Assembly: GCA_030054135.1 (NCBI GenBank)
Contig: JASGCN010000002.1
Coordinates: forward strand, 21,484-85,483
DNA from: Alphaproteobacteria bacterium
GTDB taxonomy: Bacteria > Patescibacteriota > Minisyncoccia > Phycocordibacterales > JABAAK01
DNA: 64,000 nucleotides
Direction of reading: 5' to 3'
The notes under the pieces were generated by a model that saw nothing but the letters and a program-made list of their open reading frames with translations, did no database searches and was not told the origin of the DNA. Numbering within the stretch: the stretch's first letter is position 1; each line of letters opens with the position of its first letter. Shown piece after piece: positions 5,408 through 59,793 of the stretch. The translations under genes were made by a program, and so were the position numbers.

Positions 5408-5429
5408 TTTTTAGTGGTATATTTTACAT

Positions 5430-10557: not shown

Positions 10558-10678
10558 ACTACGTATGTGTGTATATGTTCTTTTTGGAAAAATAACAGTG
10601 CTTATCACTCGGAAATATTTTTTAATAAACACAAAGAGATTCATAAGAACATGGTACACTGTCAGTATATTTGACATT

Positions 10679-11821
10679 ATGACTATTGTTGATTCTCTAA
10701 AAAATATTTTACATGTAGGCAAAAAAGAATCAGTTCTTGGAATTGATGTTGGAACCTCAGCTATAAAAATAGTTCAATTACATCAAAGTAGCGATGGGCC
10801 AGTTCTTGATACCTACGGGTCACTCGCCCTTGGCCCACAAGTAGAAGAAAAAAAAATTGCAATTGGTGAGTCAGTGCCAATTACTGTTTCACTTATAAAA
10901 AAATCTCTTTCGTATCTTATGCGTGAATCGAAAACCACAGCAACTGTTTTTGGTTTTTCACTTCCTTTTAGATCGAGTTATGTAAAACAAATTACAGTAC
11001 CACAAATGTCGGATGAAAGTTTGCGAGAAGTTATAGACATAGAAGCAAATAAACATATTCCTGTTCCATTGCAGGATGTAACATTTGAATGGTTTCCTGT
11101 GCCTGAATTGTTTAGTGATATTGAAGAGAACCAACTCACTACAGTCGGTGGAAGAGACACTCCACTCCTAGAGAAAAAAAATACTGATACTCGTACACTT
11201 GTACTTTCTGTGGTAGAAAATACTACTCTTAATTTATACAAATCAATTGCAAGTGAATTACAAATGCTTAACCCACGCTTCGAGATTGAAATATTTTCTG
11301 CGTTGCGGTCTACTACAAAAGAAACCCATGCACCAACACTCATTATAGATATTGGTGCTCGGACAACTAAATTTTATATTGTATTGCACAGTATTGTGTT
11401 TCGGTCATTTTTTATAGATCAAGGAGGGGAAACACTTACTCATGTGATTATGAATTCTGAAAAAATTGCATTTCAGGATGCTGAACTTAAAAAAAGAGAA
11501 TACGGACTTGAACATCCACATGAAGAGTTACGTGAAAGTATGAATGCAATTATTGATAATTTAATTAGTGAGATCAATATCAACATGCAAGATTTTGAGT
11601 CACACTATCATCATGCCATTGGGCGAGTTGTTCTTACTGGGGGAGGGAGTACTCTTGGGGGGCTGTATCAAAAAATTAAAGAGAATATACCTGTGGCGGT
11701 TGAATACGCGAATCCATTTCTCTATGTGGCTCATCAGAAAAATGTTAATGATATTTTACAAAAAGTGGGGCCTGAGTTTTCAGTTGCCATTGGCATAGCA
11801 ATGCGTATGTTACAAAAATAG
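10679..11821 (+). CDS. pilM: Type IV pilus assembly ATPase-fold protein PilM
   Basis: VLGIDVGTSAIKIVQL actin-like N-terminal motif; ~380 aa. Confidence 0.8.
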   Translation: MTIVDSLKNILHVGKKESVLGIDVGTSAIKIVQLHQSSDGPVLDTYGSLALGPQVEEKKIAIGESVPITVSLIKKSLSYLMRESKTTATVFGFSLPFRSSYVKQITVPQMSDESLREVIDIEANKHIPVPLQDVTFEWFPVPELFSDIEENQLTTVGGRDTPLLEKKNTDTRTLVLSVVENTTLNLYKSIASELQMLNPRFEIEIFSALRSTTKETHAPTLIIDIGARTTKFYIVLHSIVFRSFFIDQGGETLTHVIMNSEKIAFQDAELKKREYGLEHPHEELRESMNAIIDNLISEININMQDFESHYHHAIGRVVLTGGGSTLGGLYQKIKENIPVAVEYANPFLYVAHQKNVNDILQKVGPEFSVAIGIAMRMLQK

Positions 11822-12980: not shown

Positions 12981-15923
<2,943 letters not shown>

Positions 15924-16044
15924 AAATGAAAGAACATAACACATGAAAGCAAATAACAACACAATTATTTTATAGATACAATGTGAAGAAAGTTGCCTTT
16001 GCTATTGAATTGTCATATACTGAAAGAGGATACTTAGTATTTAA

Positions 16045-16152
16045 CTTTGGTGATATACTCGTGGAGGTAACACCCGTTCCCATTCCGAATACGGCAGTGA
16101 AGGGCCACAGAGGTGATGATACTCGAAAGGGGAAAGTAGCTCGTCGCCAAAG
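16045..16152 (+). rRNA. rrf: 5S ribosomal RNA
   Basis: CACCCGTTCCCATTCCGAATACGG core; terminal helix CTTTGGTG...CGCCAAAG. Confidence 0.8.
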
Positions 16153-17278: not shown

Positions 17279-20089
17279 TTGATAGTATCATGGTTCTATA
17301 TGGTTAAATATCCTGAGGGAGGTAGTGGACCAGCACATAAAGAGGTTTATATCGAAAGAAATTTTATACCGTGGCATACTCTGGCACATTTGGAAAGGTA
17401 CGATGAAATTTCAGATTATTCAAATGACAATAAAAAATATTTGGTGAAAGATTTTAATTCTGATACACCAGGAGTTGTTAAATTGCATAATAAAACAGAT
17501 GATACATGGGGTAATTACAAAATTGCAAAAACAAACGACACATGGAAAGTATTTCCAATTGACCACATATTTCTTCAAAAAGACAATCATCCACGAATTC
17601 AAATAGATAATAAAAATTATTCCTTAATATATTCTAATGCTGGTAAAAAAAAACGGGTAAAAGTATATGAAGAAAAATTTGATCCTGAATCTGGAACATG
17701 GAAACATGAGGTGATATCACCAGATACAATATTACAAAATAAAATTAAACAAGAAATAGGTAAACAAAAAGAAACAGAAAAGCTATTACTAGAGTACTTG
17801 AAGTCTCAAGCACCTTCTTTAGATATATTTGATGTAATTCCATTTTATTCGGATGACAAAAAAACATATCGAGTGTTGAAGTTTGTCTCTGGTGAACCAG
17901 GAGTTGTTGAATTGTATAATCAAACAGATGATACATGGGGTAATTACAAAATTGCAAAAATAAACAACACATGGAGAGTATTTCCAATGGAGCATCATTT
18001 TATTCCACAAAAAAATGGTTATAAAATATTTTCAATGAAGAATAAAGTTTATCATTTAAAAAAAAATAGTGGTAAGAACTTTGAAGTGTGCGAGGAAATA
18101 TTTGATACCACACAAGGATCATGGAGGTTTAATGAGGTACAAGATAAAGTACTCAAACAAAAAATTGTAAGTGTTTTTCTCACACAAGGTAGAGGAAAAG
18201 ACGAGGGTAAGACAAAAGAAAACACCAACTGGTTCGATCTCCCCCGATTTGGTTTAAAAGCAAATGATAAAGTTCAATATGAAAAAAAAGATTGCGTAAT
18301 AAATGATTTTTTGTTTTATAAGCCTGGATGTATTACATTGAAAGACTACGGAGAAAAACAATTTAAAATTGCAAAAATAAATGGCACATGGGGGGCGTTC
18401 TCAATTGACCACACTTTTGCTCCCAAACCATATAAAAAAATTACAGCAGAGGGTAAAAATTATTTTATCAATTCGCATGAAAACAAAACACCATACACAC
18501 TATGGGAAGAAAGATTCATCTCACATGCAGGAACATGGAACCTTCATACAGCAACAATAAGTGAATCAATGAGAAAGAAAATTAAAGATGAACTTTGGTA
18601 TTTTGATATTCCTAAAGAAGTTCTCTTTAAAGGAAATGCCGCAAAAATTGAGCATTTCATAGAAAAAAAATTAGGATTTGTTACATTAAAAGGCGATGGG
18701 GATCAACAATTTAAAATTGCAAAAATAAATGGTAGGTGGGAGGCATTTATCTATAATTATAACTTTTTCAACAAAGAATATATACGGGTTGGTATAAATA
18801 ATAAAAATTATTTCGTAAAAAAAAATCTCGCTGAAGAAATAAAAATATATGAAGAAAAATTTAATCCTAATTCCGAAGAATGGGTACTTTCTGGTGTGGC
18901 CGTAGGTGATACATTGCGAAATATAATAATATCAAAAGGAAAGGAGATTCTTGCTGAACAAGTAAATAAAAAATCGTTTACACCAACCACACCATTAACT
19001 ACAAGTACACCTGGGTATGCTGGAGAAGCTTGGGGTATTCATCCTGGTGGTTGGGGGGGTACTGAGGGTATACCAAAAAAATCTGAATCAAATTCCTATA
19101 AACCCACTATTTCAAAAATTGAACCACAAACATTGCAAGATCTGATAGCGCAGGAACGTACCATGGAATCGGACATGCAAACATCAAAGCAGACAATGAA
19201 TACATTACAAACAAAAGATGAACAAATATATTCGAAGAATCGATTTTTAATAGAAACAGATCCAGAAAAATTAACTCCTAAAGAAAAAGAAAAATTAGCC
19301 TCCATTCTTTTGAAAAGACTTGCTCTTAAACTAGAAATAGAACATTTTAAAAATGAAAAAAATGGTAACGAAAGTAGGCTATACATAAGACAATTATTGA
19401 AAGATAAACCAATACAAAAAAATCAAATACCAATCATGGGGGAGGAGACTTTGCGAGGTCTTGTGGAAAGCCCCAGCAATACTTCAAATCCAGATAAGAC
19501 AACAATTCAACCCATTGGTAGTGACCAAACAATAATTCAACCAACAGCCTCATCTACTGGTACATTTCCTACTGAAGATGTGACTCATAAGAACATACAA
19601 GGTACACAACAAATATTTACACAAGCGGTGCGTTTTTTAAAAGATATTACACATAATAATAAACCAAATAAAAAAGCATTAGCTTATTTTGCGGCCTTCC
19701 TTATTGCGCTTGGATTGCCAAAGGGGGTAAAGGATGACTCAGATACTTCTTTCCAGCTACAAAAAAATTCAAACATATTGGAGTACCAAAAGCAAGAAAA
19801 TAAAAAAAACAACAATATAGTATCATCGGAATCAAAAATTTCCATACCTGAGAGCAAAGAAACACCTACAATATCTGACATATATGTAGTAAAAAAAGGA
19901 GACAGATTAATGAAAATTTTAAGAGAAAAGGGGTACACACCTGCTGATGTTATGAACGCAATAATGGATAGATCAGGATTCATAGAAGAGTTGGCACATC
20001 AAGGTATAACTGACCCGAATAAAATTTATCCTGGAAATGAAATAAACATTTCTAAGCTTGCGCCATACTTAAATAAATCAAGAGTATAA
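17279..20089 (+). CDS. Giant repeat protein (936 aa) with four ~35-aa GVVxLxNxTDDTWGNYKIAKxNxTWxVF repeats and C-terminal LysM domain
   Basis: Repeats read directly; C-term YVVKKGDRLMKILREKGYT...IYPGNEINI is a LysM fold motif; leaderless-type start. Confidence 0.6.
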   Translation: MIVSWFYMVKYPEGGSGPAHKEVYIERNFIPWHTLAHLERYDEISDYSNDNKKYLVKDFNSDTPGVVKLHNKTDDTWGNYKIAKTNDTWKVFPIDHIFLQKDNHPRIQIDNKNYSLIYSNAGKKKRVKVYEEKFDPESGTWKHEVISPDTILQNKIKQEIGKQKETEKLLLEYLKSQAPSLDIFDVIPFYSDDKKTYRVLKFVSGEPGVVELYNQTDDTWGNYKIAKINNTWRVFPMEHHFIPQKNGYKIFSMKNKVYHLKKNSGKNFEVCEEIFDTTQGSWRFNEVQDKVLKQKIVSVFLTQGRGKDEGKTKENTNWFDLPRFGLKANDKVQYEKKDCVINDFLFYKPGCITLKDYGEKQFKIAKINGTWGAFSIDHTFAPKPYKKITAEGKNYFINSHENKTPYTLWEERFISHAGTWNLHTATISESMRKKIKDELWYFDIPKEVLFKGNAAKIEHFIEKKLGFVTLKGDGDQQFKIAKINGRWEAFIYNYNFFNKEYIRVGINNKNYFVKKNLAEEIKIYEEKFNPNSEEWVLSGVAVGDTLRNIIISKGKEILAEQVNKKSFTPTTPLTTSTPGYAGEAWGIHPGGWGGTEGIPKKSESNSYKPTISKIEPQTLQDLIAQERTMESDMQTSKQTMNTLQTKDEQIYSKNRFLIETDPEKLTPKEKEKLASILLKRLALKLEIEHFKNEKNGNESRLYIRQLLKDKPIQKNQIPIMGEETLRGLVESPSNTSNPDKTTIQPIGSDQTIIQPTASSTGTFPTEDVTHKNIQGTQQIFTQAVRFLKDITHNNKPNKKALAYFAAFLIALGLPKGVKDDSDTSFQLQKNSNILEYQKQENKKNNNIVSSESKISIPESKETPTISDIYVVKKGDRLMKILREKGYTPADVMNAIMDRSGFIEELAHQGITDPNKIYPGNEINISKLAPYLNKSRV

Positions 20090-20096
20090 TGAATAC

Positions 20097-20804
20097 ATGA
20101 TAGAACAACATTCTAACATTGAAAAAATACCCTATAGTGATACGAGCGTTCTACAATCATTTAAAAATATTTTTATAGATGGTACATTAAAAAAAATTGA
20201 TAAAACAGAGCCAGTCCCAGATGAGTGCGCGATGGAATTTTCTTCTGCTGATGTTTCTATATTGAAGGAGCTGGATGAATCAAAAGACATTTTTTATTTC
20301 TTTTGTATGGCTGAACACGCATATACCTATGTACCGTGGAGTATGGAAACATGGGCTTTGTATTTAAGTAAAAAAACTCCTATAAACATATCGGCGGATT
20401 ATAGATGTACTACTTATATACAATCTAATAAAAATTTAAATAATATACAAGAAATATCTTTTTTTAATCAACCGCAAGCCGACATTCAAAAACATTGGGA
20501 GTGGCACTGTGGTGAAAATGGTTACGCACTTTTTAGAAAAAATTCAGCGCCTGAAGGCATTGCTCATGTACCAATTTCCACTGAGAAAAAAACGCAATCA
20601 GTTGTTGCATTTGAGCGAGCAAAGAAGACATTTAATGAGACCGTATTATATATTCTTACTGAACCATTGAAACAAGAATTTACTGAGCTTATCAAAAATG
20701 AAAAATTTTCAAAAGATCATTTATTAAGTTTTATTATGAAATGTGTTCCACACCCATATGGGTTAATGTCTACAATTCTTCAAAATCTTCAAAAAGAGAA
20801 TTAA
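20097..20804 (+). CDS. Hypothetical protein (235 aa)
   Basis: ORF track. Confidence 0.45.
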   Translation: MIEQHSNIEKIPYSDTSVLQSFKNIFIDGTLKKIDKTEPVPDECAMEFSSADVSILKELDESKDIFYFFCMAEHAYTYVPWSMETWALYLSKKTPINISADYRCTTYIQSNKNLNNIQEISFFNQPQADIQKHWEWHCGENGYALFRKNSAPEGIAHVPISTEKKTQSVVAFERAKKTFNETVLYILTEPLKQEFTELIKNEKFSKDHLLSFIMKCVPHPYGLMSTILQNLQKEN

Positions 20805-20824
20805 ATGCGTGCTATTCTGTGAGT

Positions 20825-23272
20825 ATGAGTATATTTAAAGGTAATGGTTCACCTATTAGTCGGTATGTAGATCCTATTGGGACTCCACAGGAGGATTTGA
20901 ATGAATATAGAAACAACAAACCATTAGATTGGAATGAGTTCGATACCACTATTCGTCGGTATGTAGATCCTATTGAGACTCGACAGAATGATAGAAACAA
21001 AAAACCATTAGATTGGAGTAAGTTCGATACCACTATAGGCACAGACTCTTCTATAAAAGAAAATGCCATTGAGAAAGATAATAAATTTGAAACACAAAAT
21101 GAAAACATTATAAAAGGTATTAAAGAAACAGATCAAGATGCAGAAAAAAGAGGATTAAAAAAAATTTTTGAATCATTAAAAAAACAATGGGATGCAACGC
21201 CTTCGTGGATGAAAATCACTCTCTCGGGGCTAGTTACTGTTGGGGGGTTAACAGGGGTTTCTTTAGCAATCCCTTCTGCTATAGCTGTTACAAGAATAGT
21301 GGGGACTGCTTTATCCGTAATCAGTATTACAGATATTTTGTCAAAAATTAAAGGCTATAATAAAAAAGATGGTTTGACAAGTGATGTTTTTCTTGGGGCG
21401 GGGAGTATTATTTCAGCGGTGGCGTCTCTTGCTACAGTTGGAGTTTCAGTAATTAACCCGAGTCTTGATATAAGAAAATATCAATCGTTTGCATATAGTT
21501 GGGGGGCAATAATGGGTATGGCGAATGTTTATTTTGCAAAAACAACATTGGGGAAGGGGCTCGGTGTATCAGCAGCACTTATTTCTTTATTTGGGCTTGG
21601 GTCGATGCCCACAGAACAACACAATGAACAGGCATATAATTCAAATCCACCATCAACTCCACCCACACCGCCATCAAATATTTATTCAGATGGACCGTCA
21701 TTCCCACCTACACCAACTTCTACATCTCCACTAACTCCAACCCCAACACCACCAAATATTTATTTAGATGGAGCATTATTTCCACATAATGCAGAATTTT
21801 ATAATAACGAACATGTAGTACAGTATGAATCATCTGCATCTATTAGTGATTTGGAATATATTGTTACTGCCAAAGATGGGGATACGGTTACTTCTATAAT
21901 AAAGAGGGCAATAGAGGATCGAGCGCTTGATGATCCAGCCGTAGCCTCTGCGCTTGAACAGTTTAAAGTATCTGGTGGATACGACCAGCGCATGGAAAAT
22001 ATTGTTCAAAACATTCTTTTTACAAAGCTTGGAGAGGGCTCTACCATAACCATAGGAAACGATTCATTATTAGATATCATAAACGAATGCAAAAGAGAAC
22101 ATATATTGGTAGGGGATGAAATATGTATAAAAATTCCAAAAGATGACTTAGGAGTAATTCTTGCACGAGCTTTACATCTTGAACCTAAAGATATTGCAAA
22201 CATACAAGAAGGATCAAGAGTCTACCAAGAAGCACTCACACATGGTGAAGAGCATCTACGCATACCTCGTTGTGACTCAACAATACTATCTGAAGTGAAT
22301 GGCGTATATACTCAAACAAAAGTTGAAGGTACGCAAGATCAAATCGCTAAAAATACACAATGGGTATACGTTGATGATCAACCACACTCTCAAGAAGAAA
22401 AACATGTACCATACAGAATAGAAGGCCCGAAGGGAATAGCACATACTGCGTGGCGTATGGAACTTATTACTCTTCCATATACAGGAACTGATCCAGAAAT
22501 TCTTGCACAGACTAAAAAATCAATAGCAGGATTTGAAACTATAGTTCCACCACCACCTATTATTTCAACTGATGAACAATATATTATCAACGAAAACATT
22601 TCAGAGTCTCAATTTAAAGAAGGATTGTCGGATGACAATACTACCAACAATGTAAGTGCTCAGCGTTCTGAAAGTACATACACCCCTCTATCTGCTGCGT
22701 CTCTTGGAACCAATGCATTGCCAAACACCACCATAGAGGATTATCTTCATGAGACTCCAGTACAATTATCACACACACAAATAGTAGAAGCACTCGCACC
22801 AACCCAAAGCAGTGTGTTAAGTAATTTTTTTAGTGCGTTAACATTTGGAATATTTGATTCGAAGTCATCTTCAATTGATGTGTTAAGTAATAATAATTTT
22901 AATTATCTTCCAGAGGATAAATCCTCTGGGTATCAAATTCTTTATGATGACACACCTCCTCACAAAAATATCACTGTTACAAATATTCCTATTAGTCTTC
23001 AAAATATATATTCAGACAGTTCATATACAAAACTATTAGATACCCCTGCAGTTGAATTTATTAACACACCAGCAACCACAGATTCTGAAAAAATACTCTT
23101 AGGAAATATTGCTCGTGAATCACGAGAAGCTTTAGGGTATTATAAGCCAGCTGTTAATGAAATTGGGTATGTAAATATTGGCCCATTGGGGTCTCCAAGA
23201 TCTGGAGAAACAGTAAAAGAATATTTAACTTTTTTAACAACACATAATATTGTAGTCCGTAATACACTTTAG
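20825..23272 (+). CDS. Large hypothetical membrane/surface protein (~815 aa): N-terminal RYVDPIxTxQxD...KPLDW repeats, multi-TM segment, Pro/Thr linker, large C-terminal domain
   Basis: ORF track 20741..23272, start trimmed to MSIFKG; PPSTPPTPPSNIY...TPTPTPPNIY linker. Confidence 0.5.
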   Translation: MSIFKGNGSPISRYVDPIGTPQEDLNEYRNNKPLDWNEFDTTIRRYVDPIETRQNDRNKKPLDWSKFDTTIGTDSSIKENAIEKDNKFETQNENIIKGIKETDQDAEKRGLKKIFESLKKQWDATPSWMKITLSGLVTVGGLTGVSLAIPSAIAVTRIVGTALSVISITDILSKIKGYNKKDGLTSDVFLGAGSIISAVASLATVGVSVINPSLDIRKYQSFAYSWGAIMGMANVYFAKTTLGKGLGVSAALISLFGLGSMPTEQHNEQAYNSNPPSTPPTPPSNIYSDGPSFPPTPTSTSPLTPTPTPPNIYLDGALFPHNAEFYNNEHVVQYESSASISDLEYIVTAKDGDTVTSIIKRAIEDRALDDPAVASALEQFKVSGGYDQRMENIVQNILFTKLGEGSTITIGNDSLLDIINECKREHILVGDEICIKIPKDDLGVILARALHLEPKDIANIQEGSRVYQEALTHGEEHLRIPRCDSTILSEVNGVYTQTKVEGTQDQIAKNTQWVYVDDQPHSQEEKHVPYRIEGPKGIAHTAWRMELITLPYTGTDPEILAQTKKSIAGFETIVPPPPIISTDEQYIINENISESQFKEGLSDDNTTNNVSAQRSESTYTPLSAASLGTNALPNTTIEDYLHETPVQLSHTQIVEALAPTQSSVLSNFFSALTFGIFDSKSSSIDVLSNNNFNYLPEDKSSGYQILYDDTPPHKNITVTNIPISLQNIYSDSSYTKLLDTPAVEFINTPATTDSEKILLGNIARESREALGYYKPAVNEIGYVNIGPLGSPRSGETVKEYLTFLTTHNIVVRNTL

Positions 23273-32169: not shown

Positions 32170-32189
32170 TAAAGTGGTACAATAGAAAT

Positions 32190-32744
32190 ATGAATATACT
32201 ATATATTGTAATTATAATATTTGTACTATTAGTGTTATATGTGATTTTTGCTTTCAACTCTCTTGTTGCAGCACGCAATAGAAAAGAAAACGCGTGGTCA
32301 GATATTGATGTGCAAATGAAAAGAAGATATGATCTCATTCCTAATCTTATAGAAACAGTAAAGGGATTTGCAAAACAAGAAAAATCAGTTTTTGAGGAAG
32401 TAACAAAAGCACGCAGTCAAGCAATGCAAGCAGGGTCTCTACAAGAGCACGCACAAGCAGAAAATATGCTTACTGGTGCGCTTAAATCTCTTTTTGCGGT
32501 GAGTGAAGCGTATCCTGATCTTAAAAGTAATCAAAATTTTCTTCACTTACAACAAGAGCTTGTAGATACAGAAGATAAAATACAAGCGGCTCGTCGATTT
32601 TTCAATTCTGCCGTGCAAGATCTTAATGACAAAATACAAATGTTTCCTGGAAACATTATTGCTACTATTTTTTCATTTAAAGAAGAAGAGTTCTTTACAT
32701 TGGAAGAACAAGGTGCTCGTCAGCCAGTGAAGGTATCATTTTAA
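32190..32744 (+). CDS. lemA: LemA family membrane protein
   Basis: N-terminal TM then NSLVAARNRKENAWSDIDVQMKRRYDLIPNL LemA signature. Confidence 0.85.
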   Translation: MNILYIVIIIFVLLVLYVIFAFNSLVAARNRKENAWSDIDVQMKRRYDLIPNLIETVKGFAKQEKSVFEEVTKARSQAMQAGSLQEHAQAENMLTGALKSLFAVSEAYPDLKSNQNFLHLQQELVDTEDKIQAARRFFNSAVQDLNDKIQMFPGNIIATIFSFKEEEFFTLEEQGARQPVKVSF

Positions 32745-35684: not shown

Positions 35685-35777
35685 GATGCACTCATGGTAA
35701 GCAATGGGTAGGGTGGGAACCAACATTAAGAAAAAAAATCAGAATAGTTTTTCCACATGTAGTATACTATAGATAGT

Positions 35778-38378
35778 ATGCATGATGGTATGAAGAATTC
35801 TAATACTATGCCATCAAAAAATATAACCAAAGAAGATATACGAAAGGAATTTATTTTTTTGCCAGAAGAATATAGAAACAAACAATACAGAAAATTTGTA
35901 GAAACTGAAATGAAAAGGGGTATCAAAACTTGTCTTTCCTGTAGAAAACAAAAAAATTATCAAATGACACTGCATCATGTGCTTCCACTTGGAGTGTTTG
36001 GAAGTAAAGAATCAGACACTCTCGCTCCATTGTGTATTGATTGTCACAAGGCAGTTACGTATCGGGTAAAACTTCATACCACACAAAGAGAAGAATGGAT
36101 CGATGCAACTGCAAATGAAATTGTACGTATGCAAAAAATTCTTGCAGACATTGAATCAAAACGAGTGTACACGCACAGTACATTTGAAAAATTTCCAGAA
36201 AAACCTTTTAATGCGCGCGATCTTCCTATTTCTGAAAAAGCAGCAGACATTATGCAACTTGTTGATATGTATGGCATTGTCATAGTATCTGCAAGCACTG
36301 GCTCAGGAAAAACAATGTTAATTCCTGAGCTTTTGCAACGATCAATTGGTGGAAAAGTATTTTGTACTCAACCAAGACGCATTGCTGCTCGTTCGGCATT
36401 TGAAACAGTTGCCCTCACTACTAGCGAGGGTACACATATCCCAGGCAAACTTCCAACCAATGAATATGTGGGGTATCGTACACGACACAAAGATCATACC
36501 GTTTCATCTACTAAAGTCATTTATGGAACAGCTGGTATTTTGCGCAGACAACTGGAACATGATCCACTGTTGAGCGAGTATCGCACTATTTGTATTGATG
36601 AACAGCATGAACGCTCAATTGATATTGATCTTATTACCGCACTTGTGTATGAGGCATACACAAAAAGAAAGGGAACAACAAACCCGCTTTCAATTGTTAT
36701 TATGTCAGCAACTCTTTCGGTAGAGTATTTGCAAAAAAAATACACCATTGATCCACAAGCCCTCATTGAAGTTACGTCTCGCAGATTTCCAGTCGATCTT
36801 CATTTTCTTGATGAAACACCGCACCCAAGTGATACATCAGATGCGGGAGCACATGTTGTGGAAGATATATTAAAAAATACGAAATATGGTGATGTATTGG
36901 TGTTTATGCCAGGTAAATATGAAGTGGAACAAACAATTGTAAAATTAAAGGAAAAATTAGGAGAGCGTGCTCCATATATATTTGTACCTGTGCATGCAGA
37001 TTTATCTGCAGATGAACAGCAATTGATATATACAGTGGCTGAAGAAGGTACCAGAAAAATAATCGTCGCGACAAACATTGCTGAAACTTCTCTTACTATT
37101 CCAAATATTGCATATGTTGTTGATAGTGGATTAAAGCGAGAAAATTATTTCAATACCGAGCATGCAATTAATGAGCTTCGTATGCAATATATTTCTCTTG
37201 ATGAACAAACGCAACGCACTGGTCGTGTGGGGAGACAATACCCAGGAGCATACTACGCATTGTATTCGCCCGAAACTACTCTTTCGTTTAAAAAACAACG
37301 AGATCCAGAAATACTTCGTGCCAGCATTAGTAGAGCGATTCTCACACTTGCAAGTGTTGGAGTAAGAGATTTCAAAAAATTTCCATTTGTTACCGCGCCA
37401 AAAGAAACAGTTCTTGAAAAAACTGCAAACAAACTCACCATCTTAGGTGCATTGCGAATAGATGAACAAGGTAGGTATTTTATTACCGATGAAGGACGTG
37501 TGCTGATTGACTTACCTCTTGAGCCACACATTGGTAAAATATTGATACATGCATGTGCGAGTGACGCATTATGGGTTGCAACCCCTGTGCTTTCTCTTAT
37601 GTCAGAGCGGTCGCCATTTATAAAATCAACTGACGAAGACGAAAGAGAAGACGCCACTGTGGCACACAAAAAATATATATATCCGTATTCAGATTTTTTT
37701 ACTATGCTTAAAATATGGGCAGGGTATGTGTCTGCACGAACACAGTACGAAATATTTGTTGATTTAGAAGCATGGGCAAAAAAAGAATACCTGCGTCTCG
37801 AAGTGCTTGAACGCGCTGAGGAAAATTTGAACCAGTTGTATGAAGTATTGGCAGATAATAAAGAGTTTATCGCAACGATCACATCAAAACATGTGCAAGA
37901 CATAGCAAATACCATTAACTCTCACCAAGCAAAAAAATTAAATCATACCAATGAAAAAATAAGCACAGACACTTTGGAAGTGCTTAATGGCGTGATTTGT
38001 TCTTCTCTTGCATGGAATGTATTTATTTTAATAGAAATAAATAGAAAAAACCCCAAAAAAGTATATGGGGTGTATGAATCACACAATGGTGCAGTGAAAA
38101 AAATACAAGCACGCGTGTATGCTGTGGGGCAGTCCACGTTACCAGAGGCTTTTGTTTGTGGTGGGGTGTTTACGCTTACACATTTTGATGACAAAACATT
38201 AGTACACGAACATGAAAAAATAAAAACTCTTACACAACTGCATCCAACAGAACGTCCACAAGGAGCGAAAAATTTTTCTAGGAATATCTTTTCAGAAAAA
38301 AGCTTATACCCCAGAAATAACAAACAGCACGGCAAACACAAAAAAACATTCCAAAGACGAGGTGGAAAAAGATATTAG
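35778..38378 (+). CDS. HNH-endonuclease domain fused to DEAH/RHA (HrpA/HrpB-like) helicase, 866 aa
   Basis: N-term CLSCRK...LHHVLPLGVFGSKESDTLAPLCIDCHKAV (HNH); helicase motifs SASTGSGKT (I), CIDEQHERS (II), MSATL (III), TNIAETSLTIP, QRTGRVGR (VI). Confidence 0.7.
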   Translation: MHDGMKNSNTMPSKNITKEDIRKEFIFLPEEYRNKQYRKFVETEMKRGIKTCLSCRKQKNYQMTLHHVLPLGVFGSKESDTLAPLCIDCHKAVTYRVKLHTTQREEWIDATANEIVRMQKILADIESKRVYTHSTFEKFPEKPFNARDLPISEKAADIMQLVDMYGIVIVSASTGSGKTMLIPELLQRSIGGKVFCTQPRRIAARSAFETVALTTSEGTHIPGKLPTNEYVGYRTRHKDHTVSSTKVIYGTAGILRRQLEHDPLLSEYRTICIDEQHERSIDIDLITALVYEAYTKRKGTTNPLSIVIMSATLSVEYLQKKYTIDPQALIEVTSRRFPVDLHFLDETPHPSDTSDAGAHVVEDILKNTKYGDVLVFMPGKYEVEQTIVKLKEKLGERAPYIFVPVHADLSADEQQLIYTVAEEGTRKIIVATNIAETSLTIPNIAYVVDSGLKRENYFNTEHAINELRMQYISLDEQTQRTGRVGRQYPGAYYALYSPETTLSFKKQRDPEILRASISRAILTLASVGVRDFKKFPFVTAPKETVLEKTANKLTILGALRIDEQGRYFITDEGRVLIDLPLEPHIGKILIHACASDALWVATPVLSLMSERSPFIKSTDEDEREDATVAHKKYIYPYSDFFTMLKIWAGYVSARTQYEIFVDLEAWAKKEYLRLEVLERAEENLNQLYEVLADNKEFIATITSKHVQDIANTINSHQAKKLNHTNEKISTDTLEVLNGVICSSLAWNVFILIEINRKNPKKVYGVYESHNGAVKKIQARVYAVGQSTLPEAFVCGGVFTLTHFDDKTLVHEHEKIKTLTQLHPTERPQGAKNFSRNIFSEKSLYPRNNKQHGKHKKTFQRRGGKRY

Positions 38379-39155: not shown

Positions 39156-39370
39156 GTATCTACTACAAGGGTACTCGCACCCAGTTAGTGTATGCACTAA
39201 TTAAAACCTTTTTTAAGGGCGAAATTCACTTGTATTTGCTCTTTAACCAGTATTGATAGAATAATAATCTACAAGAAAAAAAGAAAGTGGTAATCGTATA
39301 TTTACTTTTACCCCGATCTTTCCTTTTGATTTGAAATTAAAGTGATTTGATGATAACAAAAAAAATATAT

Positions 39371-40828
<1,458 letters not shown>

Positions 40829-41023
40829 CTTTTGAGCAATCTGTAATAAGATTGTTTGGTCAAATGTCTTTACTTTATGTAAAGACAAGATAATAACACA
40901 ACATCTCTAAAGAGTGTTCGGTATAGCCCATACACGATAGGGTAGGAAAGAACGGGGTAAAAGTAAGTAGACGATATCATAGATTATTTTTTCTATACAA
41001 TATTGGATAACGCGAAACAAAAA

Positions 41024-46825: not shown

Positions 46826-48790
46826 ATGAAAGATATTACCTATTTAGGAGAAAGCAATGCACGTGGAGAACGTATTCGTTTTGGCATAAAAGAAGAAGAT
46901 CGTGCACGACACATGTATATTATTGGGCAAACTGGTACAGGTAAATCAACGCTCATCGAAAACATGGTGATACAAGATATCGTTAATGGAAAAGGATGCA
47001 TTTGTATGGATCCACACGGACAAACAGTGGAACAGATTCTTGAATATATTCCAGAGTATCGCTTGAAAGATGTTATTTATTTTGCTCCACACGATCAATC
47101 ATTTCCTATTGGACTCAATATCATGGAAGATGTTGGGTACGATAAACGGCACTTAGTAGTGAGTAGCTTACTTTCTGCATTTGCAAAAATATGGGGAGAA
47201 AATTCATGGTCTGATAGAATGGAAAATATTCTTTCAAATACATTATTAGCGTTGCTTGAATTCCCAAACACAACACTTCTTGATGTTGGGCGTATGTATT
47301 CAAGTAAACAATTTAGAAAAGAAGTGGTAGATAACATAAAAGATCCACAGGTGAAACAATTTTGGACAGAAGAATTTGCAGCGTATACCGAACGATATGC
47401 AGCTGAAGCAACTCCCGCTATTCAAAACAAATTAGGACAGTTCACATCAAACCCAATTATTAGAAACATTGTTGGCCAAGTAGACAGCGCTTTTAATTTT
47501 AGACAAGTGATGGATGATAAAAAAATTCTTCTTATCAATCTTTCAAAGGGAACTATAGGGGAAACAAATGCAAAAATGTTAGGAGTATTGTTTACCACAA
47601 AAGTGTATCTTGCTGCACTTTCTCGTGCAGATGTATCTACTCAAGAGCTTGCAGCACTTCCTCCATGTACCTTTTATGTTGACGAATTTCAATCATTTGC
47701 GAGTTCAACATTTGCAGGTATTTTGTCTGAAGCTCGTAAGTATAAACTACATTTAGTAATTGCACACCAATACATTGATCAACTTGAAGAAGAAGTACGC
47801 AATGCAGTGTTTGGAAACATTCCTACCATTATTGCATTTCGGTTAGGGCCACTTGATGGTGAGTTTATGGAAAGAATATTTTCTCCAGTGTTTGAAGAAA
47901 AAGATATCATAACATTGCCACGATATTCTATGTATTTAACACTCTGCATCGATGGGGCAGGATCGAGACCGTTTTCCGCTCGATCGTTGCCGCCTCCACC
48001 TCTGCCTGTACGCTCTATTCGAAATGAAGTACTATCGTACTCTCGAGAACAGTACACAACACCTCGTGAAGAAGTAGAGGAACGTATTAATGCTCGCCTT
48101 ACGCAATATGCAAAAAATGTACCCCCTCCTCAAAGACCAGTAGCACAAAATAATTTTAATAACCCCACTAATGAAAGAAATTATGGTGTGCACAACAATC
48201 AAAGATCATACATGCAAGCCTCTTCTTCGTATGAATCTAATACTCCTCCCCAAATGCGACAGGTTCCTCCCATGCCCCAACACACTGGGGTTTCAGCCAC
48301 TGTGGGTACAGTCGAATCAGATGCTAACAAAACTATTATGATTCGTTCAAAAGTAGCAAGGCGCGCTACTCGTGTTGGTACTGGTAGACGAGTAGAAGAT
48401 ACAACAGGTGTGAATATAAAAAAAACAACTAGAACACCTCCATTGTCGGATATCCCTCGTGCCACACTGCTTAAAAAAACTACAACTGTTAAAAAGAAGG
48501 AAGTTGCCAAAGCAGAAACCAAAGTATTGGATAATGGTATTGAAACAGTATCGCAAAAAAAACCAATACAAAAGAATATAGTAAAATCACGGGTTAAAAA
48601 AGTATCACCATCAGTGGATATCTCTCCGGTATCTCCCGTACAAGATAAAATATTAACGGAAGTATTAAAAAAATTACAATCTCATCCAGAACATCTAAAA
48701 AAGTCTACGCCATTGTTTGCGCCACCAACAGGGAGAGAAGAAGGATGGGTCTCTCTTAGTGATGTGTTAAAAAAAGAAAACGAACTATAG
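46826..48790 (+). CDS. FtsK/HerA/TraD-superfamily P-loop ATPase (TrwB/VirD4-like nucleotide-binding domain), soluble, with ~250-aa Pro-rich disordered C-terminal tail
   Basis: Walker A IIGQTGTGKST at residue ~35 followed by DPHGQ; Walker B-like CTFYVDEFQSFAS; KYKLHLVIAHQ; low-complexity tail. Confidence 0.5.
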   Translation: MKDITYLGESNARGERIRFGIKEEDRARHMYIIGQTGTGKSTLIENMVIQDIVNGKGCICMDPHGQTVEQILEYIPEYRLKDVIYFAPHDQSFPIGLNIMEDVGYDKRHLVVSSLLSAFAKIWGENSWSDRMENILSNTLLALLEFPNTTLLDVGRMYSSKQFRKEVVDNIKDPQVKQFWTEEFAAYTERYAAEATPAIQNKLGQFTSNPIIRNIVGQVDSAFNFRQVMDDKKILLINLSKGTIGETNAKMLGVLFTTKVYLAALSRADVSTQELAALPPCTFYVDEFQSFASSTFAGILSEARKYKLHLVIAHQYIDQLEEEVRNAVFGNIPTIIAFRLGPLDGEFMERIFSPVFEEKDIITLPRYSMYLTLCIDGAGSRPFSARSLPPPPLPVRSIRNEVLSYSREQYTTPREEVEERINARLTQYAKNVPPPQRPVAQNNFNNPTNERNYGVHNNQRSYMQASSSYESNTPPQMRQVPPMPQHTGVSATVGTVESDANKTIMIRSKVARRATRVGTGRRVEDTTGVNIKKTTRTPPLSDIPRATLLKKTTTVKKKEVAKAETKVLDNGIETVSQKKPIQKNIVKSRVKKVSPSVDISPVSPVQDKILTEVLKKLQSHPEHLKKSTPLFAPPTGREEGWVSLSDVLKKENEL

Positions 48791-50642: not shown

Positions 50643-51413
50643 TTACTTGCAGTATGGATTGCGTGTTGCAGATCGCTCAATAAAAGCATTTCTTTTTGCT
50701 TTCGTATCAGCACGATGCATTGGTTTTTCTTCAAAAGCACGAGAAAGAGCAGGGGAGATATCACAAGCAAGAAACACTCCTTCATTTATTTTTTCTCCAA
50801 ACACTCGCACAGGAAGATGTTGCACAAGACTAATAGTATCAATTATGTCTAATGCTTCAAAACGCACCGTCCATTGTCTTCCTAGTCTATCGTGTAACAC
50901 AATATACTCTTCAGCTATGGTATCTATTTCTCCCACAAGAGTTCCTCGTTCAGGATTATTAAGCGCTCGTTCAATGTGTGCTTCTGGACGCTCCCAATGT
51001 TTTTGAAAAAGAATCTTTTCACGAACAGTGGGGAACACATATCCAACAAGTGCCAGTATGACGCATATAATGAGTGTACTTCCTATTATTGTATACAATG
51101 TTGGGCGGTATCCTTTGTTGGTGTATCTAAAGGCAATGTATATGCATACACACAGTGCTATGTATATAAGTATCCACCATACAGGAAATATACGAAAGAA
51201 ATATTCAATACTGGTAACATCACTTAACCGAATATCGTACCATCCGCCATCTATTGCTATAGTAAAAGACAATGACAGGTACAGTCCTGCGTATAGTGTT
51301 GTGATCGCGAGGACTCCCCATATGAACACATTGCGTGCTATAAACAATGCACGAGGAATGCGCTTCACAGAAGCGAGAGCATTAACTAATTTTTTTGGGG
51401 GGTTTTTTGTCAT
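50643..51413 (-). CDS. Polytopic membrane protein, putative anti-sigma factor (translationally coupled downstream of ECF sigma gene)
   Basis: Start overlaps sigma gene stop; multiple TM helices; C-terminal soluble domain. Confidence 0.4.
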   Translation of the reverse strand: MTKNPPKKLVNALASVKRIPRALFIARNVFIWGVLAITTLYAGLYLSLSFTIAIDGGWYDIRLSDVTSIEYFFRIFPVWWILIYIALCVCIYIAFRYTNKGYRPTLYTIIGSTLIICVILALVGYVFPTVREKILFQKHWERPEAHIERALNNPERGTLVGEIDTIAEEYIVLHDRLGRQWTVRFEALDIIDTISLVQHLPVRVFGEKINEGVFLACDISPALSRAFEEKPMHRADTKAKRNAFIERSATRNPYCK

Positions 51414-51415
51414 AC

Positions 51416-52051
51416 TTATAAAGTAGTATAAGGGTACTTATGTGTTTGTTCAAGTAACATGCGAATGTGTTTGCGTGCTCGAGTAAGTGTTGTGCCAACT
51501 GCACTTGTGCTTATTTCAAGGGTGTCAGATATATCTGTATAGTTTTTGTGTTCAAAGTAATATAAATATAGGACATCGGCATATAGTGGGTGCGTTTCAG
51601 ATACGAGTGACAATATAGAACTGATGGTAGTAGAGAGTTCTTGGTGTAATGCGTTCTGTGCAGTATCATCTTTTTCACTTAAAAAAGAAATAAGTTCATC
51701 ACTATTTTTCAGTGTGTACCCTTCTGGACGGACGCTTTTTTTTCTGTGGGCGCTAATACATTCATTTCGTGCAATACGAAATAACCACGCAGAAAAAGAA
51801 AGAGAGGTGTCAAAGCTTTCTAAATATTTGTACGCTTTTATAAAAATATCTTGCACAATGTTTTCAAGCTCTGCGTTGCTTACTGATGTGCGATAGCGTA
51901 CCATGTGAGCAATGTGTGTGTGGTATCGTTCGTAGATGTGTAAAAATGCATCTGGAAATGCAAGAGTGTCTGTAACAAGTTCAATATCTGTTTTTTCTTC
52001 TTTGCTTTTGTGTTCTGGTGTGTGTTGAGGGGACTGCTTTTTTTTATTCAT
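51416..52051 (-). CDS. ECF-type sigma-70 family RNA polymerase sigma factor
   Basis: Region 2 (IFIKAYKYLESFD...SAWLFRIARN) and region 4 HTH (NYTDISDTLEISTSAVGTTLTRARKHI); start trimmed to MNKKKQ because upstream ORF codons are the tRNA-Ile gene. Confidence 0.75.
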   Translation of the reverse strand: MNKKKQSPQHTPEHKSKEEKTDIELVTDTLAFPDAFLHIYERYHTHIAHMVRYRTSVSNAELENIVQDIFIKAYKYLESFDTSLSFSAWLFRIARNECISAHRKKSVRPEGYTLKNSDELISFLSEKDDTAQNALHQELSTTISSILSLVSETHPLYADVLYLYYFEHKNYTDISDTLEISTSAVGTTLTRARKHIRMLLEQTHKYPYTTL

Positions 52052-52053
52052 AT

Positions 52054-52131
52054 CTGGTGCGAATGGGAGGACTCGAACCTCCGACCTCTCCATTATCAGT
52101 GGAGTGCTCTAACCACCTGAGCTACATTCGC
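52054..52131 (-). tRNA. tRNA-Ile (anticodon GAU), CCA encoded
   Basis: RC reads TGCGAATGTAGCTCAGGTGGTTAGAGCAC TCCAC-TGATAAT-GGAGA GGTCGGAGGTTCGAGTCCTCCCATTCGCACCA. Confidence 0.8.
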
Positions 52132-52139
52132 ATTATTAT

Positions 52140-52400
52140 CTATCTGATCAATTTGTTTTTTTACGCGGTACTAGTAATTGAATTCTATACCACAACCACA
52201 ACGGTGGTTAGAGCACTTGTGCTCTCTGTATTTCAGTTCGGGATACCCTCACAACGACCTGAGCTACATTCGCATTTTCAATTTGTTTTTTTACGCGGTA
52301 CTAGTAATTGAATTCTATACCACAACCACAACGGTGGTTAGAGCACTTGTGCTCTCTGTATTTCAGTTCGGGATACCCTCACAACGACCTGAGCCACATC
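52140..52400. repeat. Tandem direct repeat, 2 x ~130 bp, each unit containing tRNA-Ile-derived fragments (GGTGGTTAGAGCAC + inverted GTGCTCT forming a 16-bp palindrome, and ACCTGAGCTACATTCGCA = tRNA 5' end)
   Basis: Unit 52149-52278 repeats at 52279-~52400 (second copy diverges at its end). Confidence 0.75.
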
Positions 52401-52546
52401 ATTGCTATTATTCAAGTATACTAACTTTTTCAAATAAAGTCATTAAAATAATTAAACGCTATACACAGTACCCCCTATTCATCATTCATGTGTATATCTC
52501 AATAGCACTCACAATTCATAAGGCATAGTAGCACTATATACACACT

Positions 52547-54856
52547 ATGCATTTTCCTTCTACAAACATAAAAGGGTTTACTTTTATAGAAGTGCTCATC
52601 GCCATAAGTATTGTTGGCGCGTTAAGTGGCGCAGTCATTTCAGGGCTACAAGTATCTCAAGACAAAGCAGAAGAGAAAAAAAGCAAAGTAGAGCTTTCAC
52701 AAATTATTGCTTCAGCTGAAAATTACTATACCACCTATAGTACCTACACTGGTTTATGTAGCGCAGGCACACTCACAGAAAAATTAAACACAGATATACT
52801 CACACAAGGATATGTATGTTCTGTTTCAAATAATGGGGAAACATTACGGGTGCACACTGTTGCGACACACAATTCAAATATTGTCTGGTGTGCTGATACT
52901 ACAGGGGTGCTCACCAATAAAGATGCTGTTCCTACCACTGCTGGTTGTAACGACACTATTGCAAGTGCTACTCCTGCTATCAGTACAGCAACACATTCAG
53001 CAAATCTTTCTTCTCGTTCATTCATTCGAGGCATTGGTGATTATCTTACAAACTATCTTCCAGGTGGATCGTTTCAACCATCAACAATAGTATCATTAAA
53101 ACCAGTAGTGGCTCTTGTTGAAGACACTGGAGAATCATCAACTGATGGCATTACAAACAATAGCACAGTACAAGTGAGAAATCAAAATCCTGCGTACACA
53201 CTATCGTGGGGAACAGGCAGCACAACTATTTTCCCAACTACATGGGCACCTACCATACCTTCCATCACAACAGATGGAACCCACACAGTGTATGCTCGCT
53301 ACACAAACACAGAAGGAGCAGAATACATTAGCAACCCACTCACATTCATAGTAGACACCACAAGCCCCACGCTTGTTGCTGCCAATCCACTCCAGTATAT
53401 TCAATCTTCAAGTGGAAATGTATCTAGTGTTTCTACTACCTACACACAAGCGGGTACTCCAGAAACTCTTTCTGTGGTGAACACAACACCATTATTTACT
53501 CGCATTGCACACACAATTAAAAGTGCAGTAAGTGATGAAGTTTTTGCGTCTTCACACACACAACTTCCAACTGTATCATTTCCATCAACATCTATTCCAG
53601 TAGCAAAAGCCACCATTACTGCAACAGGAAATGTATCTATTGCTGTTGAAAATGGAGGATCTCAATTTAACGGAACAGTTTCTCTTGTGGGGTTGTGTAC
53701 ACCAGAAAATACATTAGGTACAATCACTAAAAACGCAAGTGGAGCAATCACTTCAATAACATTCCCCAACACCGTTACTTGTGCAGCCACTCCAACAGTT
53801 GTATTTAGCCCCTCAATAGTTGCGTCAAGCAATGCATGCCCCATTACTGATATAGCAGGCAACTGTGCAGTGTATGGAAAAATGGTAAACAATACATTTA
53901 CTCAAACTTCCGCAGCCCCAATCGTTAAACTCAATGCAGTGGATAAAACAGGATGGGTTGATGTTGACGAAGATGGATTAATAGAAGTTGCAAATGCAAA
54001 CGAATTCATCAATATGAAGTTTGCACCAGCAGGAGATAAAAAATATACATCAGCAAACAGCTTTTCTTCTCTTGGGTGTCCATCTGCAATTGGGTTAGTC
54101 GGAGGTCTATCTAGTGGTAAGTGGCACTTTGTGTATGTAACTGATTCAACTAAAAACTTGTACTTCACTAATTTCACCGAACTGCGTGATGCAGGAGTTT
54201 CAGAATCAGAATTAACTAACATACAAAATAAAAATGGGTGGGTCTCTACTTATGCATGTGTAGGGTATGAACAAACAGCAAACACTATTGATGTATCTGC
54301 CACACCTTCATCAGATTTTTATACAGGTACCCAAGAATTGGATTATAATGGAAATAATAATCTAATTTTGGCAAATAGCGTTGACCCATTAGAAAATTCC
54401 TTTATTGAAAAAAAAGATATTCTTATCAGAGCTTATCAGTATAATTTTGATGGTACGGGGTGGAGTGGCGATTGGGGTAACCCTACAGCTAATGAACTTA
54501 TTAATAGCAACGCTATTATTATATACAATAGTGCAGGTACAATTATACCGCTATATTCTTTTATAAAAGAACGGAGAACTGGTAGAACTGGATCTTATGA
54601 TTATTATTTTCCCGCAGCTGATGTTTTTAATTCGCTAAATACTAGTTTGGCAAGTTCAATGTATAGAATTCAAAGTACAGGAGGGTATGTATTTTCAAGA
54701 TGTGTATATGATGGTACTCCTGCTAACAATGGAATACGAAGTAGATATTCACGGTATTCTGTTTCCAATGGTGTGTGGACGTTACCAAATGTATTTATTT
54801 ATATACTTGAAGAAAGAGACACACGGTGCACGGTGTGGCGGGGGCCGGGGTTTTAA
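52547..54856 (+). CDS. Giant type IV pilin-like protein (769 aa): class III signal peptide / N-methylation motif then Thr/Ser-rich extracellular domain
   Basis: N-term ...NIKGFTFIEVLIAISIVGALSGAV = prepilin cleavage/G-F-T-x-I-E motif plus hydrophobic helix; leaderless-type start (TATATA 6 nt upstream). Confidence 0.65.
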   Translation: MHFPSTNIKGFTFIEVLIAISIVGALSGAVISGLQVSQDKAEEKKSKVELSQIIASAENYYTTYSTYTGLCSAGTLTEKLNTDILTQGYVCSVSNNGETLRVHTVATHNSNIVWCADTTGVLTNKDAVPTTAGCNDTIASATPAISTATHSANLSSRSFIRGIGDYLTNYLPGGSFQPSTIVSLKPVVALVEDTGESSTDGITNNSTVQVRNQNPAYTLSWGTGSTTIFPTTWAPTIPSITTDGTHTVYARYTNTEGAEYISNPLTFIVDTTSPTLVAANPLQYIQSSSGNVSSVSTTYTQAGTPETLSVVNTTPLFTRIAHTIKSAVSDEVFASSHTQLPTVSFPSTSIPVAKATITATGNVSIAVENGGSQFNGTVSLVGLCTPENTLGTITKNASGAITSITFPNTVTCAATPTVVFSPSIVASSNACPITDIAGNCAVYGKMVNNTFTQTSAAPIVKLNAVDKTGWVDVDEDGLIEVANANEFINMKFAPAGDKKYTSANSFSSLGCPSAIGLVGGLSSGKWHFVYVTDSTKNLYFTNFTELRDAGVSESELTNIQNKNGWVSTYACVGYEQTANTIDVSATPSSDFYTGTQELDYNGNNNLILANSVDPLENSFIEKKDILIRAYQYNFDGTGWSGDWGNPTANELINSNAIIIYNSAGTIIPLYSFIKERRTGRTGSYDYYFPAADVFNSLNTSLASSMYRIQSTGGYVFSRCVYDGTPANNGIRSRYSRYSVSNGVWTLPNVFIYILEERDTRCTVWRGPGF

Positions 54857-58808: not shown

Positions 58809-58932
58809 TGGTGCTTTGCATATACATTGACTTCGCTAAATTGAGAAAATACAAAAAAATTAAAGTGAAAGTGCATGCATATCTTCTCCTTTTTTATTTT
58901 TCAATATAAGTGAGTAGTGGTATAATGCTCGT

Positions 58933-59793
58933 ATGTCGGCAAAGTGGTTAATTTTATTATTTATATTGTGTTTTGTGGGGGTGGTGTATTATCAGCAAAG
59001 TATAAAAACAGTTAATAAAGAATCAGTGCAGAGTAGCTCCACAAAGCCATTAACAGAAATAACTTTCGGTAAGTACAATAAAGATTTCCCCACAACGACA
59101 TCAGTAGCATCAGTGTCTTCTACTGAAGAAACCTCAATGCCAACTCCATCTCAAAATACCTCAAACCCTGAAATTGAAAGTGTAAAAAAAACTCTTGAGA
59201 AATGGAGCACTAATCTTACAGGAAAACTTGCCAATGTATTTACAAGTGATATATCGGACGCACCTTCTTCAAAAGATGCTCAATCTTTTAAAGAGACATC
59301 TCAAAATTCAACAACTTCAAATGATCAAAAAATAAATACAATCCCACAAGTTCCTGAACCAGCCCCCGCTCCTACTCCTACCCCTGCACCATCTAATTCA
59401 CTTGGATCTGTTGTAAATACACAAGGGTGCAGAATATCAAGTGAACAAGAAATAGGTAATTTATTTGTGCAATGGAATTACACTATAGGGAAAAAAGATG
59501 TGTTTCGTGTGCTTGATTTGTATGCTTCTCGTTCAGTTATACTTCCTACACGATCGGTTGCTCCACTTGAAACTCTTGTAGAGAAAAAATCATATCTACA
59601 AGAATATATCAATACTTCTCCTGATGCAGATGTAGCAAAAAGTTTTGTATCTATTGGGTGCAATACCGCAGTGCATAGTGGTGTATTCACTCTTACTACT
59701 ACTCAAGGTACATCAAAAGTAAAATTTACTTTTGTATACCAGTGGAGTGGTACGCAATGGCTCATTACTTCTCAACAAACTTCTTTGATATAA
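58933..59793 (+). CDS. Hypothetical secreted protein with Ser/Thr/Pro-rich linker and C-terminal globular (possibly NTF2/SnoaL-like) domain
   Basis: ORF track; leaderless-type start (TGGTATAAT 6 nt upstream). Confidence 0.45.
   Translation: MSAKWLILLFILCFVGVVYYQQSIKTVNKESVQSSSTKPLTEITFGKYNKDFPTTTSVASVSSTEETSMPTPSQNTSNPEIESVKKTLEKWSTNLTGKLANVFTSDISDAPSSKDAQSFKETSQNSTTSNDQKINTIPQVPEPAPAPTPTPAPSNSLGSVVNTQGCRISSEQEIGNLFVQWNYTIGKKDVFRVLDLYASRSVILPTRSVAPLETLVEKKSYLQEYINTSPDADVAKSFVSIGCNTAVHSGVFTLTTTQGTSKVKFTFVYQWSGTQWLITSQQTSLI

Follow-up and report, generated by a model that had tools for sequence, protein, structure and literature searches.

In animal mitochondria, tRNA processing punctuates polycistronic transcripts and the resulting mRNAs are leaderless. 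A bacterial tRNA-mRNA operon is also known, E. coli thrU-tyrU-glyT-thrT-tufB, in which tufB keeps a normal leader with a Shine-Dalgarno (SD) sequence. In another context, tRNA genes are targets of integrases, which regenerate or duplicate the 3′ part of the tRNA, a point reportedly treated by Williams in 2002. In this study, we examined a tRNA-Ile(GAU) gene that abuts a gene for an extracytoplasmic function (ECF) sigma factor and is preceded by a tandem repeat containing tRNA pieces. It lies in a stretch of 64,000 nt from contig JASGCN010000002.1, hereafter the window. We read this locus as a unit of tRNA-Ile, ECF sigma factor and putative anti-sigma factor in a deep-branching genome of Parcubacteria (Paceibacterota) type, the 5′ leader of which would have been lengthened by a local recombination scar with no mobile element involved, and we put the probability of this reading at about 60%. 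As in the mitochondrial and E. coli arrangements, the tRNA stands directly upstream of a coding sequence on one predicted transcript, and its processing would set the mRNA 5′ end. Unlike the known cases of tRNA punctuation, it concerns a bacterial genome of free-living type, a single junction and a regulatory sigma gene, and it is a prediction from sequence.

The tRNA gene (52055-52131, minus strand, 77 nt, CCA encoded) was identified by ARAGORN and scores 75.1 bits against the Rfam tRNA family; folded in isolation, its minimum free energy structure is the cloverleaf (−26.7 kcal/mol). Only the three nucleotides GAT (52052-52054, minus strand) separate the encoded CCA from the sigma ATG at 52051-52049, in agreement with the 3-bp distance given in a preliminary description of this DNA; the discriminator is thus 6 nt and the CCA 3 nt upstream of the start codon. 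The sigma gene (51416-52051, minus strand, ending with TAA at 51418-51416) encodes 211 residues with Pfam matches to Sigma70_r2 (8.7e-15) and Sigma70_r4_2 (1.1e-8), and its product is identical to an NCBI protein. We consider the ATG at 52051 to be the sole usable start, since the next in-frame ATG, GTG or TTG is codon 50, within region 2, and a T/S-D-x-E-L/I-V motif, conserved in an alignment with seven homologs, is already found at residue 21. Compared with these seven homologs the N-terminus is 11-12 residues longer, carrying the Lys/Glu-rich extension MNKKKQSPQHTPEHKSKEEK (codons 1-21, 51989-52051), which is in keeping with a rearrangement upon which a new start codon was recruited.

Two nucleotides after the sigma stop codon begins the gene for a 256-aa membrane protein (50643-51413, minus strand) that has no Pfam match. 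A protein of 283-323 aa, likewise without a family, follows the sigma gene in those homologous loci that have a complete downstream gene, and in three loci it is cut by the contig end. Solely by its position, the 256-aa protein is a candidate anti-sigma factor.

The preliminary description proposed that the tRNA and sigma genes are co-transcribed. This is supported by the 3-nt gap and by the lack of any promoter-like (−10-like) box before the sigma ATG, in contrast to almost every other first gene in the window, and would be the only reasonable reading of the anatomy. CCA is encoded neither in the other two tRNAs of the window nor in related tRNA-Ile genes, hence the norm is probably a cut after the discriminator, with CCA added subsequently. 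Scanning of eight loci with seven distinct sigma homologs revealed no tRNA upstream of the sigma gene, and among nine tRNAs checked at the collected loci none abuts a start codon save the tRNA-Ile of the window; this makes the junction lineage-specific. Four related tRNA-Ile genes, from Paceibacterota/Kaiserbacteria genomes, have neither the repeat nor a sigma gene downstream, and their −10 box precedes the 5′ end of the tRNA by 8-11 nt. Taken from the sequence, the junction and the N-terminal extension look as though a rearrangement had deprived the sigma gene of its original promoter and start codon.

What makes this junction informative is the genome in which it is found. In most first cistrons of the window, a T[AG]GTATAAT-like box ends 5-9 nt ahead of the ATG (examples are found at 995-1011, 5415-5432, 32175-32192, 35760-35780 and 58918-58935), an SD motif is present in almost no gene of the window, and the 3′ tail of the 16S rRNA (40800-40830) reads GGAATGTAATTAAC, without CCTCC. 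From the absent anti-SD sequence and the position of the −10 boxes, the genome looks leaderless. The anti-SD motif has been found to be lost in about half of Parcubacteria (Tsurumaki et al. 2022, PMC9297842), and the window resembles such genomes both in its 16S tail and in its genes without SD motifs; in contrast to the motif loss described there, we observe a promoter-at-start-codon architecture and, at one gene, a tRNA in the promoter's place. We found no description of this promoter architecture in the literature, nor any precedent there for a duplicated tRNA 5′ leader or a tRNA-generated leaderless mRNA in bacteria. Since the sigma gene has no box of its own in a genome of leaderless type, the 5′ end of its mRNA is most likely made by tRNA 3′ processing. 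If so, leaderless expression punctuated by a tRNA would have a bacterial example, which would also show how such genomes express genes that have lost their own promoter. We therefore see the tRNA standing where the promoter of a leaderless sigma gene should be as a more useful lead than the repeat that precedes it.

The repeat itself (52148-52399) has a period of 130, 1.9 copies, 99% matches and a score of 497 according to Tandem Repeats Finder, consistent with the two tandem units of about 130 bp noted previously, and contains two 105-nt cores, here termed U, that are identical at 105 of 105 positions. Read on the tRNA strand, the order is a promoter-like site, 9 nt, a decayed copy of the tRNA 5′ segment (AGCAATGATGTGGCTCAGGTCGTT), core U, a well-preserved copy (AATGCGAATGTAGCTCAGGTCGTT), core U, a 16-nt spacer and the tRNA. 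In the alignment, this proximal spacer (TCAGATAGATAATAAT, 52132-52147, minus strand) exceeds the corresponding inter-unit junction by 12 nt. The proximal unit (52148-52277, minus strand, 130 nt) consists of its core (52148-52252) and a 24-nt copy of tRNA positions −3 to +21 (52253-52276), which matches the tRNA at 23 of 24 positions, 20 nt of it exactly, and takes in 3 nt of upstream flank. The distal unit (52278-52406, minus strand) has the identical core (52278-52382), followed by the decayed copy (52383-52406), which is 67% identical to the tRNA. An exact copy of the tRNA 5′ end had been claimed for each unit; this applies to the 20 nt of the proximal copy and not to the distal one.

Within each core, an inverted 15-nt copy of tRNA positions 16-30 (GGTGGTTAGAGCACT) is found on the plus strand, at 52203-52217 and 52333-52347, complementary to the tRNA (52103-52117) at 15 of 15 positions. 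This match is beyond chance, having a BLAST E of 0.006 against the whole window, while the 23-mer containing it gave 0 matches in 100 shuffles. The layout is AGAGCAC-aa-GTGCTCTAACCAC-cgtt-GTGGTT, in which the centre, extended to 15 nt (AGTGCTCTAACCACC), is the perfect antisense of tRNA 16-30. On either side the antisense 15-mer is flanked by the matching sense half, forming two abutting 16-bp palindromes, AACCACaacgGTGGTT and AGAGCACttGTGCTCT (52194-52225 in unit 1, 52324-52355 in unit 2), which fold as adjacent hairpins on both strands. Thus, the inverted D-region copy and the 16-bp palindrome reported earlier (AGAGCACTTGTGCTCT, at 52210-52225 and 52340-52355) are present in both units, and a second 16-bp palindrome, AACCACAACGGTGGTT, previously unmentioned, abuts the first. 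That the repeat is assembled from scrambled tRNA fragments is nevertheless an overstatement: the 24-nt copy, the 15-mer and the two half-complements are indeed tRNA pieces, whereas the rest of the unit, aligned to the tRNA in both orientations, scores the same as shuffled controls. A decayed inverted tRNA body within the unit was also considered, and was rejected because the non-identical parts, aligned locally to the tRNA, do not outscore shuffled sequences.

The tRNA 5′ segment is present three times, counting that of the tRNA itself, and its copies differ at two informative sites; the middle one is a hybrid, with ATGTA on its 5′ side as in the tRNA and CGTT on its 3′ side as in the distal copy. 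A hybrid of this sort is what unequal crossing-over between short direct repeats (DR) characteristically leaves behind. Together with the head-to-tail, near-identical copies and the direct repeats at their boundaries, this recombinant junction repeat points to a recent tandem duplication by unequal exchange. Known duplications of this kind share with ours the identical head-to-tail cores, the hybrid junction repeat and an outermost copy that is the most diverged; ours differs in that an essential tRNA supplied the repeats from its 5′ end, the array sits inside a leader, and there is a 12-nt indel between the spacers. The ancestral state would have been DR*-U-DR, with the 105-nt core between a decayed promoter-side copy (DR*) and the functional tRNA 5′ end, and unequal crossing-over or slippage between the direct repeats within GCTCAGGT would have turned it into DR*-U-DR(hybrid)-U-tRNA. 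As the cores are identical, the duplication must be very recent or the array is being homogenised.

The preceding state may be traced one step further. The decayed copy looks like the original tRNA 5′ end, because the best promoter-like site on the tRNA strand is 9 nt upstream of it, matching the 8-11 nt seen for the −10 boxes of related tRNA-Ile genes; this original 5′ end would then have been parted from the tRNA body by U and a fresh 5′ segment. For the inverted 15-mer and the two perfect palindromes within U, hairpin-templated strand switching near a heavily transcribed gene is a plausible source. Quasi-palindrome or template-switch mutations likewise produce short perfect palindromes and place an inverted copy no more than about 100 nt from its source, whereas our locus has a circularly permuted hairpin (b, b′a′, a) rather than one corrected palindrome, and the mechanism here is our proposal.

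Several points weigh against the reading of the leader as a recombination scar. A single clean crossover would predict neither the 12-nt indel nor the one substitution that set the spacers apart although the cores are identical. The ancestral state DR*-U-tRNA and the direction of the events are reconstructions, made without close relatives. The antisense 15-mer lies between both of its sense halves in too regular an order to be due to chance, and selection besides mutation might have been at work. The promoter, processing and translation steps are predictions from sequence. Finally, further copies of the unit may exist in the source genome beyond the 64-kb window.

Short-read assemblies can mis-resolve repeats, and the unit is hairpin-rich in the manner of repetitive extragenic palindromic (REP) sequences and miniature inverted-repeat transposable elements (MITEs), so that an assembly artefact or a dispersed repeat family of the MITE or REP kind had to be considered. 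Both possibilities had been named in the preliminary description as outcomes that would undo it, and we hold them to be most unlikely. Two independent Logan unitigs (SRR23378604) that carry the flanking genes stop exactly 30 nt inside the repeat, at both predicted branch points. With a k of 31, deduced from the 30-nt overlaps they share, unitigs break in this way if both junctions exist in the reads, indicating a copy number of at least two, which could exceed two. The unit has no terminal inverted repeats, and no other copy of it occurs in the window, which spans about two thirds of the source contig. Exact-pattern scans covered 185,579 species-representative genomes (the source genome not included), JGI metagenomes and IMG/VR; none returned a further copy. 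In the species genomes a 21-nt pattern had nine loci with one match each, all of them ordinary tRNAs or chance matches, while the JGI metagenomes gave a single chance match inside an unrelated sequence and IMG/VR gave nothing.

Scrambled tRNA-Ile pieces can also be seen elsewhere. A metagenome-assembled genome (MAG) of Saccharibacteria (CAZAKQ010000004.1, positions 3990-4273 of the locus examined, minus strand) carries a pseudo-tRNA-Ile that scores 24 bits in Rfam, below threshold, and shares the first 26 nt at the 5′ end; the last 37 nt at its 3′ end (ATATCCACGAGAGTGACCGAGTCCTACCATTCGCACA) recur about 170 nt farther downstream, and an inverted T-arm-like piece lies between the two copies. Judged by its sequence, it is a second case of such scrambling in a genome of the candidate phyla radiation.

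Partial tRNA duplications beside a tRNA gene readily suggest a site of integrase-mediated recombination, and the preliminary description had suggested this, adding that the neighbouring genes could lie on an old island. Under this explanation, the tRNA fragments would be attachment (att) cores left by an integrative element once inserted in tRNA-Ile, and U the remains of that element. Direct repeats of a tRNA segment do flank U, the promoter-side copy is decayed and the tRNA-fused copy intact, as integration with a replacement segment would give, and a VirD4/TrwB-like ATPase is encoded 3.3 kb away; in having a partial tRNA copy near an intact gene, with the non-gene copy decayed, the locus does resemble attL/attR sites. 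However, it is the 5′ end of the tRNA (−3 to +21) that has been duplicated, as opposed to the 3′ part used by known tRNA-targeting integrases. The copies are 130-142 bp apart and enclose just 105 nt of non-coding DNA without cargo, and the unit has no blastn match to phages or plasmids. A Pfam scan of 53 open reading frames (ORFs) across the 64 kb detected no integrase, recombinase or transposase domain; of the 56 ORFs that reach 140 aa it took in 50, and the remaining six for the most part overlap rRNA genes or other ORFs. The surroundings are ordinary as well: the locus is flanked by housekeeping genes (tgt, lysS, uvrB, rnhA, secDF, groEL, ftsW and rRNAs), and the GC content, 0.369 for the intergenic region and 0.37-0.40 locally, is close to the 0.359 of the window. 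With neighbours of this kind and no phage, plasmid or IMG/VR match, the proposed island loses its footing, and homologous exchange alone explains the hybrid middle repeat. An att origin is thus improbable. The repeat is best read as an ordinary recombination scar in an unusual place, and serves as a cautionary case that tRNA fragments beside a tRNA gene do not, on their own, mark an integrase site. Compared on anatomy only, a split or permuted tRNA, a retron, a diversity-generating retroelement, CRISPR, the repeats of a type III toxin-antitoxin system and an invertible promoter were rejected, either because the defining partner gene is lacking or because the only tRNA-Ile(GAU) would be destroyed.

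The orderly placement of the antisense segments raises a different explanation, that the leader is a regulatory RNA. In this scheme, the 15-nt segments (anti-D) would pair with the D arm of the nascent tRNA-Ile and so gate both its maturation and the release of the near-leaderless sigma mRNA, while the flanking sense halves would form local hairpins as an alternative 'off' state. The 15/15 complementarity beyond chance speaks for it, as does the arrangement a′-a-b-b′, which masks 13 of the 15 nt. In the equilibrium ensemble predicted for the 354-nt leader plus tRNA, pairing between the D region and the proximal anti-D segment has p ~0.85, the cloverleaf helices are at p 0.04-0.14, and the two states are 1.1 kcal/mol apart, as a switch would need. 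Nevertheless, this cost of forcing the cloverleaf is low because the local palindromes re-pair, and it does not stand out from that of shuffled leaders (mean 1.4, standard deviation 1.9), 42% of which were at least as costly. The predicted cloverleaf is often disrupted with shuffled or foreign sequences upstream as well, the unit alone folds no better than its shuffles (z −1.7 and −1.6), and Rfam recognises no family besides the tRNA. A strong trap would moreover be harmful, the tRNA-Ile probably being the only decoder of AUU and AUC. Modelling thus provides leader regulation with no positive support beyond the complementarity itself, and we regard it as quite improbable. Taken to its full extent, the duplicated leader would be a cis-acting 'anti-tRNA' switch, its anti-D segments alternating between the masking hairpins and the nascent tRNA, that couples tRNA-Ile maturation to the release of a processing-generated, near-leaderless ECF sigma mRNA in a host devoid of an SD system. 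We give this little credence, as a highly improbable proposal; if true, it would represent tRNA punctuation of the mitochondrial kind in a bacterium, equipped with its own regulator.

A further question is from where the unit is transcribed. The best promoter-like site on the tRNA strand in a consensus scan is ATGACT-17-TATACT with TTAGTATACT (52415-52443, minus strand), which fits the genome motif T[AG]GTATAnT and is the site located 9 nt upstream of the decayed copy. Its −10 box, AGTATACT (52410-52424), is palindromic and hence promoter-like on both strands, scoring 9.9 bits on the plus strand, where it lies 125 nt upstream of the ATG of a pilin gene. A weaker box, GTTGTGGTATAGA, occurs in each unit (52184-52196 and 52314-52326, minus strand) and scores 7.9 bits, within the top 0.09% of window positions, on a position weight matrix that we built ourselves from 21 gene-proximal boxes of this genome. 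We also searched for an ECF-type promoter motif shared between the upstream regions of the eight homologous sigma loci and the repeat unit; with sequences this diverged, nothing convincing was recovered.

These weaker boxes permit the explanation that a promoter module was duplicated, such that each unit would carry a working promoter GTGGTATAGA, the tandem promoters would raise expression of both tRNA and sigma factor, and the tRNA pieces would be passengers. In line with this, the score is high on a matrix derived from the genome's own promoters, a related genome has a similar tRNA-Ile promoter, GGTGGTATTAT, and a transcript starting past the proximal box would be free of the anti-D segment and is predicted to fold into the cloverleaf (acceptor stem p = 0.99). 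Conversely, the T at −7, which is nearly invariant, is absent from the box, the consensus scan missed it, the matrix is small and hand-made, and the distance to the tRNA 5′ end is 52 nt as opposed to 8-11 nt in related tRNA-Ile genes, making this explanation rather doubtful.

Under the reading of the leader as a recombination scar, transcription would begin at the genome-typical promoter (52443-52415) and perhaps at the weaker box of each unit too. RNase P would then remove the leader of about 275 nt, and the 3′ tRNA-processing cut, after the discriminator or the CCA, would yield a sigma/anti-sigma mRNA with a 5′ end of 3-6 nt. Such a short end would suit a host that has no anti-SD sequence and whose promoters are otherwise placed such that mRNAs would start at or beside the AUG.

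Regarding the organism, the source MAG is labelled 'Alphaproteobacteria bacterium' by NCBI, yet its sigma homologs, Tgt homologs and tRNA-Ile matches point to Patescibacteria/Parcubacteria, and the label is probably wrong. The nearest Tgt homolog is 62-64% identical, from which we place the source in a deep, poorly sampled lineage without a close relative in the searched databases; the sigma homologs are at most 44% identical. The rRNA genes of the window are unlinked and in an odd order, with 23S and 5S first (12982-16152) and 16S (39365-40829) 23 kb downstream on the same strand. The tRNA-Ile(GAU) gene is outside any rRNA spacer, 11 kb beyond the 16S gene and on the opposite strand. Several ORFs have no Pfam match at E ≤ 1e-4, among them two of 936 aa (17279-20089) and 843 aa (20741-23272) and several of their neighbours.

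Divergently from the tRNA, a type IV pilin-like gene (52547-54856, plus strand, 769 aa) has Pfam matches to N_methyl and Big_13 and a TATATA box 6 nt before its ATG. The VirD4/TrwB-like coupling ATPase (46826-48790, 654 aa) has a long low-complexity C-terminal tail, and a PilM-like gene is found farther off from the tRNA, at 10529-11821. Both may belong with the 769-aa pilin-like protein, in a type IV pilus or DNA uptake function, rather than with a conjugative element.

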